Assembly (NCBI GenBank): GCA_000934665.2
Contig: JYFJ02001487.1
Location: 1 to 64,000 of the forward strand
Length of the DNA: 64,000 nt
Source of the DNA: Catajapyx aquilonaris
Lineage: Eukaryota
Direction of reading: 5' to 3'
Part shown: positions 11,801 through 64,000 of the stretch, one piece after another
Layout of the letters: the number at the start of each line of letters is the position of its first letter
Numbering within the stretch: the stretch's first letter is position 1
The notes under the pieces: model-generated
The model's input: the letters and a program-made list of their open reading frames with translations, nothing else
Database searches by the model: none
What the model was told of the DNA's origin: nothing
Position numbers and translations under genes: made by a program

Positions 11801-13056
11801 TTGAAATCCGCTTGAAAGCCAAGCATTTCTCTCTTCAACTTCGGTTAAATCATTTGCTAAAGAGCATCTCAAGTGGAAGATCGAAAAACAATTCAAAATA
11901 ACGTACGATTTGCCCTTGAATTTGACCCAGCAACCAAACTTTAATGAGAAGCAACATGGCCAGGTCAAATTTCGATTCGCTCTTTTGCCACCATCGGCTC
12001 GTGGCTCCACAAGTACCATTGGACATGGAGCTGACCATTGGCCTAGTTTCTTCGAATTAATGCGCATACAACTGACCATCCATCACCACGACGCGACGGT
12101 GGGGGGGAAAAAATGTGTGCAGAGCAAGCTTATAACATAAATTGCCAATCACACCTGGACGTGATCATCCAGCACGTTTTCAGCGAACCCTCGACATCAA
12201 GTTTCCCCCTCGCAATGCCCATAAAATTGTAATAATCTCTTGTAATCTCCTAGTGGCACCCAACCCTCCCCTACCCATTCAATATAAAAGGCCTTTCGAC
12301 ACGATTCCATGGGCAATTCGCAGAACAACTATATGATGATGGGGAGGTCAGCGCCCTTTTGGTGGTCCTATCGCATGCCAGACACGAATATAATCTGACT
12401 CACTGGAAAGATAGATTTTTTTTTTAAAGGTAAATATAGGGTTGCCTCGACGACATCTTATAAAAGTAGCCATGAAAATAGCTCGAGTTCGATTGCCCTA
12501 TTTGGTTTTTAGGTCAATTTGGATACACGCCTATCGACAAGAAGGTTATCGTATTAATGGCCGGTTGTACGAATTAGGAGGAAATTCTTCCAATATGCAT
12601 TATGAAGGTCTATAGACAACATCTGTGATTTTATCTCATTTGTTTTCGCACAACTTAGTCGGCTATGTGCCAATTAGAAAAAATCTATGATTATGTGTAA
12701 TTCACAACAGAGAGCAATCCTACATAATCTGGTTACAAATATATGGCCCATCATATTAGTATGGGGAGCTATAAATTTACACAAAAAGCTAATCGACATG
12801 GGCTCAAATTATTGAGAGTTCACAGCGAAGCAATTTAACAAATAATTTACACCGCACCAGACCACGTCCAAAATCAGCGACAAAAGCACAATACTTATTG
12901 GCGCACGCCGATTCAACATGTGATATACTGTGCTAGGAAATGTCAAAAAGTGTTATTGAAATAATAATACAGAGTACAGCAATCCCATTCCGTATGTCAT
13001 GTTGATGCTACTACGTGCAGCCAATCAACTCCTGAAAAATTTATGGAATAACTCAC

Positions 13057-16000
13057 CTATAATAACGTTGACTTGGTTGCTGTAATTCCGTAGCACCTTG
13101 GAGACGTCACAGGATCGAACAACCTGACAAGATGGGCTTCGGAAACGCTATCCTTGAAGGACAAACAGAAAGAAAAAAAAATTGTTATATAGTGGTCCCA
13201 GAAGAATAGTAAAGCCGATATTTTTACTGTATGGTAACCCATCAAAACTTACATCTTCGAGCAAAAAAGCCAATCGATCCAACAAGATGAGTCCTTCGAT
13301 AACTGGGGCCAGCACCGTCCTAAGTTGAAAGAACAGGTCGAGCTTCTTCTGGTACGGCAAGTATTGCTCCAACAATTTGGTCGCATCGACACCTTCAGGC
13401 TGTAACAAAATATAACACTGTTAAGCACATATTTCCGCAAATGATGTCACAGCTTAATTATTTGAATTCGTCTCCCTTTCACCATCTCATCATTTTTTTT
13501 TAACACCTTGTTTTCCATGAAGAGTCGGAAAACTTGTTCTGATAATAAGGTCAAATGCTGTCAATTCTATAAATTGCATAAAGTTGATGGCGTCATATAA
13601 GCTCACCTGTTTCAACTTCAACTTATCCATCGCCCGTCTAAGGTAGTCAGGAAAATCTTTACTTTTGGCAGCAATTCTTCCAACGTGAAATTCCGCCACC
13701 TGGTCCCCATAATTTTCCCTCAGTACCACCTGAAGCAAGGCTCGGTAAAACAAGGATTTGCTTGGCACCTGAAAAATTAATTACCATGCCATGTAAACAT
13801 CCGCAAAATCCTGTCAAAGGTCAAGTTCGTGCCAGTCCTTGACTGCACCCAGCAATGGCATTTAATTAATCACACCTTGCCATTACACAATTAATAATTA
13901 TTTTTTTCCTTCATACCGATTGAAGTTGTCGGATTCTCTCGAGAGGCTGTGCAGCCAACATCCTCGCGTTTCTTCCCAGGCAGCACCTTTTCTCCTTGGC
14001 GTATTTGCTCATTGGGAAACCAGATCCTTCAGAAGCCTCGTGGTCCTTCCAAAACTCGGGCAGTTCAAACTCCTCGTCCAGAAGGTGGTAGCAACACCCA
14101 ACGACGCACATCCCTTTGGCCTCTTTGCACCTGGCAAACAGTCTCAACATGTGAGGACCCAAATTTCCACATGTGTGAAGCCCAACAAGGACCATGCTTT
14201 CGGGATGGTCACCAAATTCGGATGACACGAGAGCAGGAAGATCTGTTCGGTCTGTGACGTACGATGTCACTCGCTTGTAGTTGTCAGATGATGCCCAATC
14301 AGCACCGCCCCAAATCCTCTAAAAAATAATAATAAAGCAGGTGAACCCCGAGAAAACCCACGCCACCGACTGGTACACACAAAAAAAAATCCCAGAATCA
14401 GACGGTAAAAATACCGACCCTAATTATACCTGCAATATTCAGGCCTGCTTGTCAGCGAAACCAAAATATGAATGACATTTGGTCATTTGTGTGCATGCAA
14501 TGTCAACACACTGAAAGCTTGTCATTCTGCGATTGTTTCCGCGTGATTTCGTGCGTGATCGTACAACCAGTTTTTATATATATAAATCCACTTGTTGTGA
14601 ATCGATCATCGCCTTTTATAGAAGGCTATTCGATTCGTTGCTATAAAATTTGGGTATGAAACTTCAGATGGATGTGTGGCACGCACTATATACAGCATAT
14701 GCACAATATGAGCATCGATTACCAAGGCTCGTATAAGGAAATTGACCCCGTCTTATCACGTTATTATTCCCGGAGCACACCCTTTCATCGACCCCCTGCA
14801 CTTTTCTTACGTGCTCCTTTGGGGTCAACTTCTGTTTGTTTTTTGTTTTTTAATCCGGTGTAATTCCACACCCAGCACCTGAGCACTTGACTAATCACGT
14901 AGAGTGCGTGCGTACCGTTGTATGTATAATCCCTTTGGCTAATGAGAGTTGGACTTGTAGAAACCTTTCTCAGAATTAGCTTAACTGCACAGCGCAAATT
15001 GTGTGAAATAAATAAATCCGCCTAAGTGCCAAATTTGACATTTAAAAAAAATAATGTGTGAAGTAGAACGGCTATTAATGGGCGTTATTTCGCTATTCAA
15101 GGTGGCGGTTGTAAAGCAAGTAATAAAATAAGTGCGTAGTTCGTTAACAATAAATATTTCGGGCTGTCCCCTCCCCTCTGGGTGACCTGGGCGTCAAGCA
15201 AGTACTGACCTTACACCATAACGAGGTGTTGTGGCTTCCAGAACGGCCTTGCAATCTATCGCACCCATGACCCCCATAACCACTGGTACAACAAAGTGCA
15301 ATTAAACTTCAACTTAAAAAGGGGGGGAAGAGAAAATATGAAACCGCAGACTCGCCCAGTTGTAATTGTTATGCCTGCAGGGGCAACGTGCTTTCAAAGA
15401 CGTAACTATAGCTGGTAGGTCCTTGGAGTCATAAGCGCAAAATAATAATAAGCAGGCGGAGCAACATGCCAGCAGGACAAGAGTGCACGATTAGTATAAT
15501 CAGTACGTGTATTAATAATTATTTTTACTCACTACATGATAGTTGCGTAATTCATCGACATAAAAATGTGTCAGGTATCGAATAAGTCACATGTTACAGG
15601 TGGATGAGCTGTAAGACTACTAGGAATACAAATGTCGATAATACCTATAGGAAATTATTGAGAAACTCTGTACATAATAATAGCCACTCACTGTACAGTA
15701 TTTTTTTGTGTAATTAACTCACTCCACTATAGTGCAAGATTACAATGCACATATGCAACATTTCAATATAAATTATTAATTGCAACTCATGGGTGGGACA
15801 GTAAGAGGAGGGCATTAGGATAATGATATGTGACATAACCGGGTTAGAGCTATGAACACGCACATACCTACATGTTTTATTAACTGATAATAATAGTTGC
15901 ATACTTCCATATATGAAATAGCTTGCGACACATTTGGCATACCAAGTATATCCCAGTAGACTCCTAATTACTATTTAAAAAAGGCCTTCTTAAAAATAGC

Positions 16001-17435
16001 AGCAAAATGTCAATAACGTAATTGAACCAGAATTACGCAATGAAAATGAAAATTATACTGTTGTGCTATTATTATTAATACAGTCGAACCCCGATTATTA
16101 TGTCACCAACAGGACTGGGGCATAATCGGATAACCGAAACGGTAGGGGAATCCGTGGAGTAAAAAAACTTTAATAAAACACAATAAAAAACATATAAAAA
16201 CATGAAATAACGTACAAAATTATTGTTTTCTAAGAAATAGTGAAGTATTTATCTTTTACACCCACTCTACTGTACTGTATTTACAACTTAACTACAGCAG
16301 AACAAACAAATGTGTAGAACGTGACAGTATGTAATGAAAAAAAAAAACAGATTTATAGCCGGAGCGGGATGGTCGGATAAACAGAGGAGTCGGATAATAA
16401 TCGGGGTTCTACTGGACCTCAAATTGAAAATATTTAAATATATTACACATAAAATCTGTTATGTGCTGCAACAATGTGTAGCTAATTTGGGGCACACTGT
16501 CCTGAGAAACAATGGCCTTCAAGGATTTTGTGCCGACTCAATAATAATATCGAGAGTCTCTATTAATAATGAACCTGCACACTGGCAATGAGTTATGTAT
16601 GAGATCGTGCATTATTTATTAAAGCACCAGGAACATTCCCAAATGTCTGTAAGACGATGTCACTCTCACTACGATGGCAAGCAGAATCAACCATGAAACC
16701 TGAACCTGCAGGATTTAATTGACATCAGGTTAGGTTAATTATTTTTAATCACATAGCAAGGGTTCCTCGGCTACTTGTAGCACCTATCAAATTAGGCACA
16801 TCTTTAGGAGAGGAGCCCTATGGATGAGCCTCTTCTCTTTCAACCCTATCAAAATTCCGTATAATGGACGGCTACCATCATGCAATGCACACGAAAAAAT
16901 TTGTACTCACCTGCAATTTTCCAGCCCTCTTTTCATCTCCACTGGTGTTAACGACTGATGAATCAATTCCCATGACTCTCAGTCCGTTCTTGATGGACAG
17001 GAAAGTACTGAGATAACCCTTCCCACTTCCGATGTCAACCACAACAGTAGCTCTGACCTTCCCGACCAGTCCGTTCACCACAGGACTCATCACCTCTACC
17101 TCATGAGCCTTCTTCTCTGACATGCACGTGTCGTATCTACGCCAGTCTGTATCACCCTCACACAAGAAAGCACAATCGGCCAGATTGGTGCACATTCCAA
17201 GTCCTTGCAATGTGTGATTCTGAGCAGCACTCACAAACTGCCCTGTGTACGGCAATCTTGACTCATAAATTGACTCGGATAACACGTCCAGCTCAGATTT
17301 GATGTCGTGAGGTACTAGGTTGTTCCAGTGATCATTCGTAATAAAGTCCACCATGTGGCAGTTAGCGATAGGGAGATACGGCTCCAGAAAGAGGACAACA
17401 CGCTCTATCGCAGCATAGATAGAGTTAACTGCCAT
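13057..17435 (-). CDS. METTL25: Methyltransferase-like protein 25
   Basis: Exons 17435-16911, 14318-13917, 13768-13607, 13399-13253 and 13152-13057, with all introns phase-0 GT-AG. Motifs: ANCHMVDF, MSEKKAHEV, SAM motif I VVDIGSGKGYL, VGLHTCGNL, VGCCYHLL, RNARMLA, LFYRALL, LILLDRLAFL, LFDPVTSPR. The ATG is in a good context (CAAAAATGG). Confidence 0.93.
16081..16414. mobile_element. Tc1/mariner (pogo/Tigger-like) MITE in METTL25 intron 1
   Basis: Terminal inverted repeats CAGTCGAACCCCGATTATTAT (from 16081) and ATAATAATCGGGGTTCTACTG (ending 16414), with 1 mismatch. Left flank is TA and right flank is GA (degenerate TSD). The interior is AT-rich and non-coding. Confidence 0.8.
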
Positions 17436-17511
17436 TTTTGGGCTAATGTCACGCACTTGCACTTTTGAAGCACCTTATCCTAATCAGTCTCTTTATTATT
17501 ATGTCTGGTGT

Positions 17512-18045
17512 TTAGAATGAGAGTGTGTCTTCCCCATAAACCGGCACTAGCATCTTCATCTGTAAGAATGCCGTCCTGAACTTGGCCCTGATGTGCCTCA
17601 TCATCTTGACTGTATCAACCTCCTTGATGTTCTCTCTTGGAAACGCCTCGATCATCGCCAGCAGTGCCTCCAGAGTCGCCTTCACCCTCGAATTGTTCAC
17701 AGTAACATTTGGATTGTCCGCACCACTCTCGGCCCCCTTCACCTTCGAGTTGTCTGCCTTCAACTTTAAGTTGTCAGTCTCAATCCACGTGAGAAGAACA
17801 CGTGCCATTCCCTCATAGTACCCCAGCTCTCCTCCAATCTCCGCTCCTTTACGATGACCAAGTGCGTACCCCTCCTCCTCCCCTTGCTTTCTACCCAAGA
17901 CCAATCCTTCCTCGTAACCCTGTCGTACGATGTGATCCTCACTCATCACAACGTCGTCAAACGCTGCATTCACATCATCTTCTGGCCGTTCCTCTGGTGC
18001 GTTGGGTGCTCCGAGTGGCCCTAGCCAGCTGGTCCCTTCCGCCAT
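17512..18045 (-). CDS. LTO1: LTO1/ORAOV1 homolog (Yae1_N deca-GX3 motif; ABCE1 Fe-S maturation adaptor)
   Basis: Single coding exon with ATG at 18045: FDDVVMSED..GYEEGLVLGRKQGEEEGYALGHRKGAEIGGELGYYEG (GX3 repeats)...IEAFP..N...IRAKFR. A 5'UTR intron 18054-18252 is likely (GTAAAT donor, TTGCAG acceptor). Confidence 0.9.
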   Translation of the reverse strand: MAEGTSWLGPLGAPNAPEERPEDDVNAAFDDVVMSEDHIVRQGYEEGLVLGRKQGEEEGYALGHRKGAEIGGELGYYEGMARVLLTWIETDNLKLKADNSKVKGAESGADNPNVTVNNSRVKATLEALLAMIEAFPRENIKEVDTVKMMRHIRAKFRTAFLQMKMLVPVYGEDTLSF

Positions 18046-18336
18046 TAATCCAACTGCAATGTAATAAGCACATGCTGCATTTAGAACAACTGTCTGCATG
18101 CTCAAGGTACTGTTCATGCCAAAGCTACATTACATTGTCTTTAACTGGTCTTTAACACACATCATACTTGCCCCTATTGGACCGGGCAGAACACTACCCA
18201 ATCCTACAACCACCATAATAATAATTTAACATAAATCTAGAACGCAATTTACCTTAAAAATGACTCAAAATATTCATATTTTCTGCAGCACACGTGAAAG
18301 AGCAACAGACGGCTGCGACCGAAATAGCCACGCCGC

Positions 18337-18373
18337 TGTGACGTCACATATCCTGTCACTGTGTGACGTCACA
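18337..18373. promoter_or_regulatory. Bidirectional promoter core with two perfect palindromic CRE sites (TGTGACGTCACA x2) between the LTO1/METTL25 unit and the THAP gene
   Basis: Identical 12-bp palindromes at 18337-18348 and 18362-18373 lie in the ~200-bp gap between the LTO1 5'UTR exon donor (18252, -) and the THAP ATG (18454, +). Confidence 0.65.
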
Positions 18374-18453
18374 GAAATTAGACGCAGCCAGCCGTGCAGC
18401 ATTGCCGTGCACGGCGTGCAGGGTTGGGTACTTGTTGCTTTTTTATTTTAATA

Positions 18454-21362
18454 ATGAAGTGTGTGGCTTTGGGATGTCCCAACAAAGGAAGCCATCGTTT
18501 TCCACGTGATCCGTCGCTGAAGGAGAAGTGGCTGGCGGCACTTGGAAGGGAAGCTTATACGCCCGAGTCCAGGGTGTGCCGGATGCACTTCAGAGACGAG
18601 GACTACAGGAAGGAAGGATATGCATCTGGTGTGTGTGTTTTCATATGTATAAATATTTGATGACGATTTATTGTACATTGTGGCCAGCTTCTTCTGTGAA
18701 AATTGTTGTCAATGTCCCAATATCCCCCCAAAAAGGGTACTGCCCTCGAAAGGGGTTTCGTAATAAATAAATAAATTGTTGTCAACGCCACAAATAGAAA
18801 GTATAACTGCTGATTCATTACCATATACATCTGTTTCTCAGGCCACGTCCTTGAGAAGAGAATACTGAACACAGGTGCAGTTCCATCAGTTTTCTCGTTG
18901 AAGAGGATATCAAGTCATGCTGTGGTTAATGGTCGGGTAGCGAGGAAGCCCAAAGAGAAGAGAGGTGAAGTCAGGTGTTATCAGAGCAAATCAACAGTGC
19001 CTGAAACTCAAACCGTAGACCTTGGAGCTCTAAGGTCTATGACTCAAACAACTGAGGAAGAAGGATCTGCAAGAACTCGTGGTGTGGTTTATGGTCGGGC
19101 AGTGAGGAAGCCAGAAGAGAAGAGCGGTGAAGCCAGGTCTAATCAGCGCAACACCATCACAGTGCCTGAAACTCAAACAACTGCGGAAGAAGGATCTGCA
19201 AGAAATCGTGTTGTGGTTTATGGTCGGGCAGTGAGGAAGCCAGAAGAAAAAAGAGGTGAACCCAGGTGTTATCAGCGCAAAACCACAGTGCCTGAAACTC
19301 AAACCATAGACCTTGGAGCTCTAAGGTCTATGACTCAAACAACTGCGGAAGAAGAATCTGCAAGCATTCGTGCTGTCGTTTATGGTCAGGCAGCGAGGAA
19401 GCCAGAAGAGAAGAGCGATGAACCCAGGTGTTATCAGCGCAAAACCACAGTGCCTGAAACTCAAACCATAGATCTTGGAGCTCTAAGGTCTATGACTCAA
19501 ACAACTGCGGCAGAAGAATCTGCAAGAACTCGTGCTGTCGTTTATGGTCAGGCAGCGAGGACGCCAGAAGAGAAGAGCGGTGAACCCAGGTGTTATCAGC
19601 GCAAAACCACAGTGCCTGAAACTCAAACAACTGCGGAAGAAGAATCTGCAAGCGATCAGGCTGTGGTTAATGGTAGGGCAGCGAGGAAGCCAGAAGAGAA
19701 GAGAGGTGAAGCCAGGTCTAAACAGCACAACACCATCACAGTGCCTGAAACTCAAACGACTGCGGAAGAAGNGCAAGAACTCGTGCTGTGGTTTATGGTC
19801 ATGCAGCGAGGAAGCCAGAAGAGAAGAGTGGTGAAGCCAGGTGTTATCAGCGCAAAACCACAGTGCCTGAAACTCAAACAACTGCGGAAGAAGAATCTGA
19901 AAGCATTCGTGCTGTCGTTTATGGTCAGGCAGCGAGGACGCCAGAAGAGAAGAGCGGTGAAGCCAGGTCTAATCAGCGCAACACCACAGTGCCTGAAACT
20001 CAAACACCTGCGGAAGAAGAATCTGCAAGCAATCGCACTGTGGTTGATGGTCAGGCAGCGAGGACTCCAGAAGAGAAGAGCGGTGAAGCCAGGTCTAACC
20101 AGCGCAACACCATCACAGTCCCTGAAACTCAAACAACTGCTGAAGAAGAATCTGCAAGCGATTGTGCCGTGGTTTATGGTTGGGCAGCGAGGAAGCCAGA
20201 AGAGAAGAGAGATGAAGCCAGGACTTATCAGCGCAAAACCACAGTGCCTGAAACTCAAACACCTGCAGAAGAAGAATCTGCAAGCGATCATGCTGGGGTT
20301 TATGGTCCGGCAGCGAGGAAGCCAGAAGAGAAGAGCAGTGAAGCCAGGTCTAAACAGCACAACACCATCACAGTCCCTGAAACTCAAACAACTGCTGAAG
20401 AAAAGTCTGCAAGCGGTTGCTGTATTTACTTGTTCCTTGCTGATTCATGTGTAGACGTTTGTGAGGTTGACGTGACATATGATCCAAATGCGCAATCAGA
20501 ATCTCATGACAATATCTGCAATGTGCTTTCTCTTCCGATGAAAATTCAGAGTGAAAGTAGTGTGGAAGTTACTTCAGTGGGTACTCAAACAGTTTTCAAA
20601 GCTTCAGTTTCTTTTGATAAGTTGAAGGACACACCGTCGTGTGTGAGTTATTACACAGGTTTTGAAGCTTTTGACAAATTACAGCTTGCTTTACGTTCAC
20701 TGGGGCCAGCAGCATATGACTTGACATATCGATATGATTCCATTGTCCAGGTTTCTGTTGAGGACCAGTTCCTACTGACTCTGATTAAGTTGAGAAGGGC
20801 CATTCCTGACTTTGGGCTGGCCATGATATTTGATGTTAGTGAAAAGATTGTGCAGAACATTGTGATCACTTGGTTAAATTTCATGTACCATGAATGGACA
20901 AATTCAGCATTTCAGAAAGCAACTTTCAGCAAGTACAAAAAGAGAACTAGATCGAAAGATTTAGGTGGAACGACACCAAGTGGGCTCATTACCTGCAGTG
21001 ATCATTCATATTCAGGTTCTGCTAGTATGATTGTTGAGAGAAGTGACCTTCGTGAAAAGTGTGACCCATCAGCTGATTCTGTCATGTCAGACAGAGATTT
21101 GAATGTTCAAGATAGCATTGCACCCAGTCACATGACATTTAATATGCCAGCTTTTACCAAAGGAATGCGTCGGCTGCCTGGTCTCCCCGTTCGCAAAGGT
21201 AGAAAACGGTCCAGGAAAAGGGTCCGCATTGAGATAATCACTGAACTGACTAATACGTACAAAATACTGAAATGTAAACTCCGCCCTCCTTACGCAGAGT
21301 TAGGGTCGGAAATATTTTTTGTATGCTGCACCCTTTGCAATTTTCGTGAGGGTGTTGCGTAG
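18454..21362 (+). CDS. THAP zinc finger + tandem-repeat linker + HTH_Tnp_4 + degenerate DDE_Tnp_4 (ISL2EU/PIF-Harbinger-type transposase-derived protein)
   Basis: Exon 18454-18628 (MKCVALGC..HRFP..W..RVCRMHF), then phase-1 intron 18629-18841, then an exon from 18842 with GAVPSVF completing the THAP domain. Repeats follow, then YYTGF, SVEDQFLLTLIKLRR..LAMIFDVS..WLNFM (transposase HTH) and QKATFSKYK..TPSGLI..SGSAS..IVERS..SVMSDRDLNVQD..KRVRIE..YKIL..CCTLCNFR (DDE_Tnp_4-like). The only frame break coincides with an assembly N at 19772. Confidence 0.8.
18915..20414 (+). repeat. Minisatellite of 11 units (126-165 nt) in frame within the THAP gene
   Basis: The core T(G/C)CCTGAAACTCAAAC starts at 18998, 19163, 19289, 19451, 19613, 19742, 19864, 19990, 20119, 20245 and 20374. 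The spacings are 165, 126, 162, 162, 129, 122 (contains the N), 126, 129, 126 and 129 nt. A typical unit reads RAVVYGQAARKPEEKSGEARSNQRNTITVPETQTTAEEESAS. Confidence 0.95.
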
Positions 21363-63986: not shown

Positions 63987-64000
63987 TAGCAAGTTAAGTA

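Follow-up and report, generated by a model that had tools for sequence, protein, structure and literature searches.

The iron-sulfur assembly gene LTO1 and the methyltransferase gene METTL25 of Catajapyx aquilonaris lie in tandem on the minus strand of contig JYFJ02001487.1 (NCBI GenBank assembly GCA_000934665.2), with 76 nucleotides (nt) between the stop codon of the first and the start codon of the second. The window analysed here is the whole 64,000-nt stretch from position 1 to position 64,000 of the forward strand of this contig, and all positions refer to it. Judged by sequence comparison, the same-strand adjacency of LTO1 and METTL25 is conserved beyond chance across insects, and the pair in the window probably represents, in this genome, an old two-gene unit of arthropods that belongs to a known dicistronic kind. 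From this conserved adjacency we infer co-transcription in this genome, and we lean, with little more than even confidence, towards co-transcription combined with non-scanning initiation of METTL25.

Anatomy of the two-gene unit

Positions 12800-18600 were read on the minus strand, and both genes were rebuilt by script. The original prediction had proposed that one promoter drives both genes, and its positions were all correct: the LTO1 stop (17514-17512), the METTL25 ATG (17435), the ATG-free 76-nt spacer, an AATAAA hexamer (17497-17492), two AG dinucleotides in the spacer and a leader donor (18252). The unit comprises the following features, in the order of transcription.

18253..18330, minus strand: putative non-coding leader exon, placed from its motif, with donor AAG/GTAAAT at 18252
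18054..18252, minus strand: putative leader intron, placed from its motifs, with GT at 18252-18251 and AG at 18055-18054
17512..18045, minus strand: LTO1 coding sequence (CDS), a single exon of 177 amino acids (aa), with ATG at 18045 and TAA at 17514-17512
17436..17511, minus strand: inter-cistronic spacer of 76 nt (sequence), 42% A, without ATG, unstructured
17492..17497, minus strand: AATAAA hexamer, a possible LTO1-only polyadenylation signal (sequence match)
16911..17435, minus strand: METTL25 exon 1, 175 aa, with ATG at 17435-17433 in start context AAAAATGG
13917..14318, minus strand: METTL25 exon 2 (gene model), 134 aa, with HTCG and GCCYH motifs
13607..13768, minus strand: METTL25 exon 3 (gene model)
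13253..13399, minus strand: METTL25 exon 4 (gene model)
13057..13152, minus strand: METTL25 exon 5, with stop TAG at 13059-13057; the C-terminus aligns with relatives

The METTL25 model thus has five exons encoding 443 aa, with every intron in phase 0, and its start codon is the first minus-strand ATG past the LTO1 TAA. The two open reading frames (ORFs) are in different frames (18045 - 17435 = 610, or 1 modulo 3), and the LTO1 frame meets a second stop 20 codons beyond its TAA. This offset and the extra stop rule out a readthrough fusion, as the original prediction had held. The putative leader exon contains a seven-codon upstream ORF (uORF; 18254-18277, minus strand, ATG at 18277) that ends one base before the donor. 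Retention of the leader intron would extend the LTO1 ORF through in-frame ATGs at 18117 and 18099.

LTO1 is 177 aa long here versus 134-150 aa in insect-like relatives, partly because of a 19-codon direct repeat in its linker (17680-17755, minus strand; ACAAcTCGAaGGTGAAGG / ACAAtTCGAgGGTGAAGG, 57 nt apart). At the other end of the unit, the METTL25 stop TAG directly precedes a consensus donor, GTGAGT, and neither AATAAA nor ATTAAA occurs within 750 nt past this stop (region 12300-13059 of the window, minus strand). The METTL25 3' end likely involves either an intron in the 3' untranslated region (UTR) or a non-canonical poly(A) signal.

Identity of the two genes

The upstream ORF is an LTO1 orthologue by its sequence. 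Residues 43-79 form a perfect deca-GX3 motif, in which ten glycines are spaced four residues apart (GYEEGLVLGRKQGEEEGYALGHRKGAEIGGELGYYEG), as defined for Lto1 (Paul 2015), and the protein ends in L-S-F. A C-terminal W or F is described as setting Lto1 apart from Yae1 (Paul 2015), and the L-S-F end matches the client tripeptide [LIM]-[DES]-[WF]-COO- (PMC10245660). An exhaustive phmmer search with LTO1 returned 487 relatives at E <= 0.001, 72 of them at E <= 1e-10; among the matches listed (of 487), F or W is terminal in 121 of 150. Six of 20 relatives looked up, from clusters of the listed matches, bear names, which include 'protein LTO1 homolog' (Anthonomus grandis) and 'oral cancer-overexpressed protein 1' (Bemisia tabaci). 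The Pfam family Yae1_N (PF09811) scores 24.6 bits against LTO1 (E = 2e-5), below its gathering cut-off of 27.5. A near-length word-index search with LTO1 gave no match at E <= 0.001, and a search of PDB sequences gave chance-level matches only (E ~1). Since the function of LTO1 needs a free C-terminal aromatic residue (W/F), we expect the protein to end at its own stop.

The five-exon gene that follows LTO1 is METTL25. Exons 1 and 2 match Methyltransf_32 (PF13679) with 37.6 and 48.2 bits (cut-off 27), and the protein carries the GxGxG motif for binding S-adenosylmethionine as VDIGSGKGY. With exon 1 as query we retrieved 62 longer proteins; those with names are called 'methyltransferase-like protein 25' and come from sharks, fishes, marsupials, abalone and a shrimp. 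In local BLAST, the spliced model aligns to relatives across its exon junctions. RRNAD1/METTL25B proteins appeared only at the weak end of the search with fused proteins described below (E = 2e-16 to 9e-8), and by sequence the window gene is nearer METTL25 than this paralogue. Both gene names given in the original prediction hold.

The H-T-C-G and G-C-C-Y-H motifs of exon 2 (13917-14318, minus strand) are invariant in 11 METTL25 relatives. In their pairing, these conserved cysteines are similar to the catalytic ones of m5C/m5U RNA methyltransferases; alternatively, they could make up a metal site. The function of METTL25 is given as unknown in one source (PMC8662637).

Conservation of the adjacency

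We scanned metagenome contigs with a METTL25 alignment, which yielded 61 loci, and tested upstream ORFs with an LTO1 hidden Markov model (HMM; built from 141 LTO1 sequences, length 159). An LTO1 ORF immediately precedes METTL25, on its strand, in 11 of the 61 loci, with a weak match in L017 and a broken ORF in L036, and the LTO1 stop is kept in all 11. The METTL25 N-terminus together with at least 500 nt of upstream sequence is present in 26 loci, 10 of which have LTO1. LTO1 is upstream in each of the seven loci with 59-67% identity to a named insect METTL25, five of them cockroach-like (L004-L008) and two leafhopper-like (L001 and L010).

Distances from stop to start are 15 nt in L017, 17 in L003, 28 in L004-L008, 66 or 87 in L010, 69 in L016 and 77 in L001. 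The 76 nt of the window fall within this range of 15-87 nt; recurrence in relatives is what gives the same-strand spacing its meaning. On contig L001, 2198 nt long, LTO1 is followed by a 77-nt spacer and then by a METTL25 ORF that runs for 485 aa without interruption. Exon 1 ends at an intron in L016, in the cockroach-like loci and in the window alike, which makes L001 a probable assembled transcript across both cistrons.

One of the five near-identical cockroach/termite-like copies of LTO1 (L007, 5496-5948) has an in-frame stop in its deca-GX3 motif (…GYH*GAE…), a stop that may mark an allele or a pseudogene or may come from an error in sequencing.

A second line of evidence comes from public annotations. 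Two long LTO1 relatives, from a beetle and a water bug, bear both Yae1_N and Methyltransf_32, and an alignment of these fused proteins used as query retrieved 64 proteins. The LTO1 HMM matches the N-terminal part of 17 of the 64, and none of the 62 proteins matched by exon 1. Fifteen of the 17 are named: three from Coleoptera, one from Hemiptera, one from Diptera, nine from Lepidoptera and one from Phasmatodea. The dipteran chimera (Pseudolycoriella, P0217) is sequence evidence that the LTO1-METTL25 arrangement exists in Diptera. The lepidopteran predictions (P0220, a Maniola jurtina RefSeq 'isoform X2', and eight others) fuse near-whole LTO1, to HMM positions 146-151, to the METTL25 start.

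Taken at face value, these 17 predictions, which include a Maniola jurtina isoform from RefSeq, would suggest that readthrough, frameshift or splicing joins LTO1 and METTL25 into a single fusion protein. We reject this reading as having next to no probability. The LTO1 part breaks off anywhere from HMM position 72 to 151 of 159 (15 of 17 junctions mapped), and since the break points vary, we regard the predictions as gene-finder chimeras that bridge the stop and the short spacer with an invented intron. The ORFs in the window are out of frame with a further stop beyond the first, the LTO1 stop is retained in every one of the 11 metagenome loci, and LTO1 is described as requiring a free C-terminal W or F (Paul 2015). 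By this comparison, the 17 are probably not real fusion proteins, although in butterflies a true splice might yet produce one, and instead betray same-strand adjacency. The tight linkage that had been noted in the window is thus kept across insects, in 17 of 64 fused-query proteins and 11 of 61 metagenome loci.

A comparable pair in Drosophila

The original prediction suggested that the Drosophila orthologues, CG13175 and CG33964, are annotated as a dicistronic pair. The annotation stands: FlyBase gives the two genes identical extents (2R:12182639..12185506; Crosby 2015, PMC4528330, File S1) and lists them as 'all di/polycistronic', with 'unrelated' proteins and '15 nt bet. stop/start' (PMC4528330). 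Elsewhere they are worded as 'overlapped genes' (PMC9604107), and one Gal4 stock carries both names (PMC6660218). The two are putative orthologues of LTO1 and METTL25, and the fly counterpart is apparently already annotated as dicistronic.

The fly pair resembles the window in having two same-strand ORFs with a short gap, and it sits on one transcript extent without monocistronic alternatives. The spacers differ, 76 nt with AATAAA in the window versus 15 nt in the fly. The FlyBase obligate dicistrons span gaps from -34 to 319 nt (Crosby 2015, PMC4528330), a range that includes the gap in the window. Our literature search found no paper that names LTO1 together with METTL25.

Most mentions of CG33964 in the literature searched belong to the genotype given for iso-1, the sequenced D. 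melanogaster strain, where the gene figures as a marked allele (CG33964[iso-1] or [R4.2]; PMC5097952, PMC5998138). One of the two fly genes thus seems to bear a lesion in the reference strain.

A candidate promoter shared with a THAP gene

Upstream of LTO1, one further feature was recorded.

18339..18371, no strand assigned: two TGACGTCA palindromes of cyclic AMP response element (CRE)/ATF type, situated between a diverging THAP gene and the LTO1 leader, likely a shared bidirectional promoter region (motif count)

This palindrome occurs three times in the 64 kb (0.61 expected), and two of the copies, at 18339-18346 and 18364-18371, are 25 nt apart. The observed/expected ratio of CpG is 1.05 near the pair versus 0.65 window-wide and 0.55-0.68 about the start of METTL25; as the profile was taken in small, noisy intervals, this rise is weak evidence of a promoter. 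Neither the motif count nor the CpG profile revealed a CRE or CpG promoter signature near 17.5 kb. That a CRE pair precedes LTO1 and that CpG does not rise near 17.5 kb is in keeping with co-transcription. Most likely, the LTO1 promoter is a region at ~18.3 kb common with a diverging THAP gene.

The THAP gene, which diverges from the LTO1 promoter, has its THAP-domain exon at 18454-18660 (plus strand; PF05485, E = 4.6e-11), and past this exon comes a 546-aa open frame (18814-20454, plus strand) of tandem ~45-aa units (…RKPEEK.GE.R.YQRKTTVPETQT…). The same repeats shift frame after a single N at 19772, which suggests an assembly indel.

Signals in the spacer and initiation of METTL25

Two properties of the spacer carry little weight on their own. 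Its AATAAA, 14 nt past the LTO1 stop, is expected by chance in 15% of spacer shuffles, and 23% of the shuffles have no ATG (P = 0.15 and 0.23). A GT-rich stretch (gtgcaagtgcgtg) lies downstream of the hexamer. The spacer folds no better than its shuffles (z = +1.13), which leaves a structured internal ribosome entry site without support. The METTL25 start context is strong (AAAAATGG), and that of LTO1 is TTAATGG. Taken together, an ATG-free, A-rich, unstructured spacer and a strong METTL25 context fit either reinitiation or unstructured internal entry of ribosomes.

Leaky scanning, which the original prediction had offered as one route to METTL25, did not hold up. The LTO1 CDS contains 13 internal ATGs, 7 of them in frame, where shuffles predict 11.5 +/- 3.2, and is thus not ATG-depleted; with so many internal ATGs, leaky scanning is an unlikely route in this genome. 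Wall et al. reportedly described, in 2005, Drosophila dicistrons of the leaky-scanning type (stoned, Snapin) whose upstream cistrons are ATG-free. In that type, as proposed here, two ORFs lie on one mRNA, and the second is initiated by ribosomes from the 5' end. LTO1 in the window differs from it in its 13 internal ATGs, whereas the relative L016, with none in 417 nt, fits the type. Elsewhere the upstream LTO1 has 11-14 internal ATGs (cockroach-like loci), 11 (L010) or 7 (L001), and internal methionine is absent in 50 of 150 LTO1 relatives among the matches listed (of 487). Since LTO1 is ATG-free in some relatives and ATG-rich in others, the LTO1-METTL25 family seems, from these counts, to use more than one initiation solution.

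One mRNA or two

In the reading that we favour, LTO1 and METTL25 would be transcribed together from the promoter common with the THAP gene, at ~18.3 kb, to give a spliced dicistronic mRNA of leader exon, LTO1 exon, 76-nt spacer and five METTL25 exons. Translation of LTO1 would stop at its own TAA and leave the C-terminal aromatic residue free. METTL25 would start at the first ATG past this stop, in its strong context (AAAAATGG), through ribosomes that, having terminated, scan onwards, or through ribosomes that gain internal entry on the A-rich and unstructured spacer. The AATAAA 14 nt past the LTO1 stop may additionally yield an LTO1-only mRNA.

Several points weigh against this reading. Sixteen of the 26 metagenome loci with sufficient upstream sequence lack LTO1; all of these are distant, with a best identity of 24-33% to named METTL25s and the window gene, and three match METTL25B best and one Dictyostelium. 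The window spacer is long compared with the 15-28 nt of several relatives, and its canonical AATAAA could end the LTO1 mRNA. An initiator (Inr)-like TCATTC lies at the LTO1 stop (17520-17515), as a single motif match without statistics. Scanning through LTO1 is not possible given its 13 internal ATGs, and reinitiation after a 177-codon ORF is normally inefficient. Finally, the orthology of the fly pair is putative: our literature search found no paper that ties CG13175 or CG33964 to LTO1, ORAOV1, Yae1, METTL25 or a methyltransferase.

Alternatively, the two genes would produce separate mRNAs: LTO1 would be cleaved and polyadenylated after the AATAAA, METTL25 would have its own transcription start, within either the 3' portion of the LTO1 CDS or the spacer, and the linkage would be a relic of an ancestral dicistron. 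The canonical hexamer followed by a GT-rich stretch, a spacer that exceeds the 15 nt of the fly and the 28 nt of the termite-like loci, an LTO1 that is not ATG-depleted, and the Inr-like TCATTC at 17520-17515 all agree with this scheme, as does a METTL25 contig (L002) that begins only 53 nt before the ATG. We nevertheless consider it unlikely. The hexamer arises by chance in 15% of spacer shuffles, the CpG/CRE promoter signature is absent near 17.5 kb, and relatives have spacers of 66-87 nt, one of them on the probable transcript that spans both ORFs. The long-conserved adjacency also favours a common transcript.

Another way to obtain two mRNAs is from a shared promoter and leader, with the donor at 18252 spliced either to the LTO1 exon (18053) or to an acceptor just before METTL25. 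This would resemble the ChAT/VAChT arrangement in that one promoter and one non-coding first exon may serve alternative acceptors; METTL25 is, unlike in ChAT/VAChT, not nested in an intron of LTO1, and the splice sites here come from motif scores. The two spacer AGs named in the original prediction (17481-17480 and 17444-17443) are present and as weak as it had said, and with 35-40% pyrimidines before them they are poor splice candidates; the real intron acceptors of the METTL25 gene have 55-85%. Better acceptor-like sites are CAG at 17507-17505, with 65% pyrimidines over the preceding 20 nt and thus within the real range, and ttacAG at 17561-17560 (55%), use of which would leave a 15-codon uORF in the METTL25 mRNA. 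Some monocistronic alternatives in FlyBase are described as arising by splices that disrupt one coding region (Crosby 2015, PMC4528330), which lends the idea some plausibility. Against it, the acceptor score is crude and motif-based, CG13175/CG33964 have no monocistronic alternatives, and spacers of 15-28 nt in relatives leave little room for an acceptor. We hold alternative splicing to be more doubtful still than separate mRNAs.

A possible link to ribosome recycling

LTO1 matures the ribosome-recycling factor Rli1/ABCE1 (Paul 2015), in agreement with the role that the original prediction had assigned to it. Several reports bear on what follows when this factor is limiting. ABCE1 loss is described as letting ribosomes enter 3' UTRs, in which they dislodge exon junction complexes and blunt nonsense-mediated decay (NMD; Zhu, Zhang and Mendell 2020, PMC7433747). 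'Suppression of aberrant reinitiation' by ABCE1 is part of a 2026 paper title (PMC13530914), and LTO1/YAE1 are reported as NMD factors (PMC12458808).

LTO1 is needed to load the iron-sulfur (Fe-S) clusters of ABCE1, which takes ribosomes off at stop codons, and the LTO1 stop could therefore be a built-in sensor, in which low LTO1, Fe-S or ABCE1 activity would lead to more reinitiation at the METTL25 ATG and to protection from NMD. With ABCE1 low, ribosomes would remain past the LTO1 stop and restart at the METTL25 ATG 76 nt on. These restarted ribosomes would clear the four downstream exon junctions, and the dicistronic mRNA would be spared NMD. Such recycling feedback is conceivable because a dicistronic LTO1-METTL25 mRNA would carry four exon junctions beyond the stop of LTO1. 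Fly NMD is largely independent of exon junctions. Young et al. are said to have found, in 2015, 3' UTR ribosome entry and reinitiation when ABCE1/Rli1 is limiting. The likeness to such cells is that unrecycled ribosomes move past a stop and can restart downstream, and that LTO1 matures the factor concerned; the difference is that reinitiation in ABCE1-limited cells is a general failure mode (yeast, human cells) and is not known to serve as a designed second-cistron route. We regard the sensor as a long shot.

Significance

Dicistronic mRNAs are an accepted and poorly understood exception in arthropods, and how their second protein is made is best studied on pairs of unrelated genes that have been conserved. 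The LTO1-METTL25 pair has apparently been kept from the genome in the window through at least five insect orders. What is added here is the breadth of this conservation and an ATG-rich upstream cistron, contrary to textbook leaky scanning. With spacers of 15-87 nt and upstream cistrons that are either ATG-free or ATG-rich, the family therefore offers a natural series for leaky scanning versus reinitiation. That the upstream gene feeds the ribosome-recycling factor also provides a specific regulatory idea testable in flies. If the sensor idea were true, iron or oxidative stress would cause the unit both to bring LTO1 levels back up and to turn METTL25 on, and it is this logic that would have held the two genes together since early pancrustaceans.

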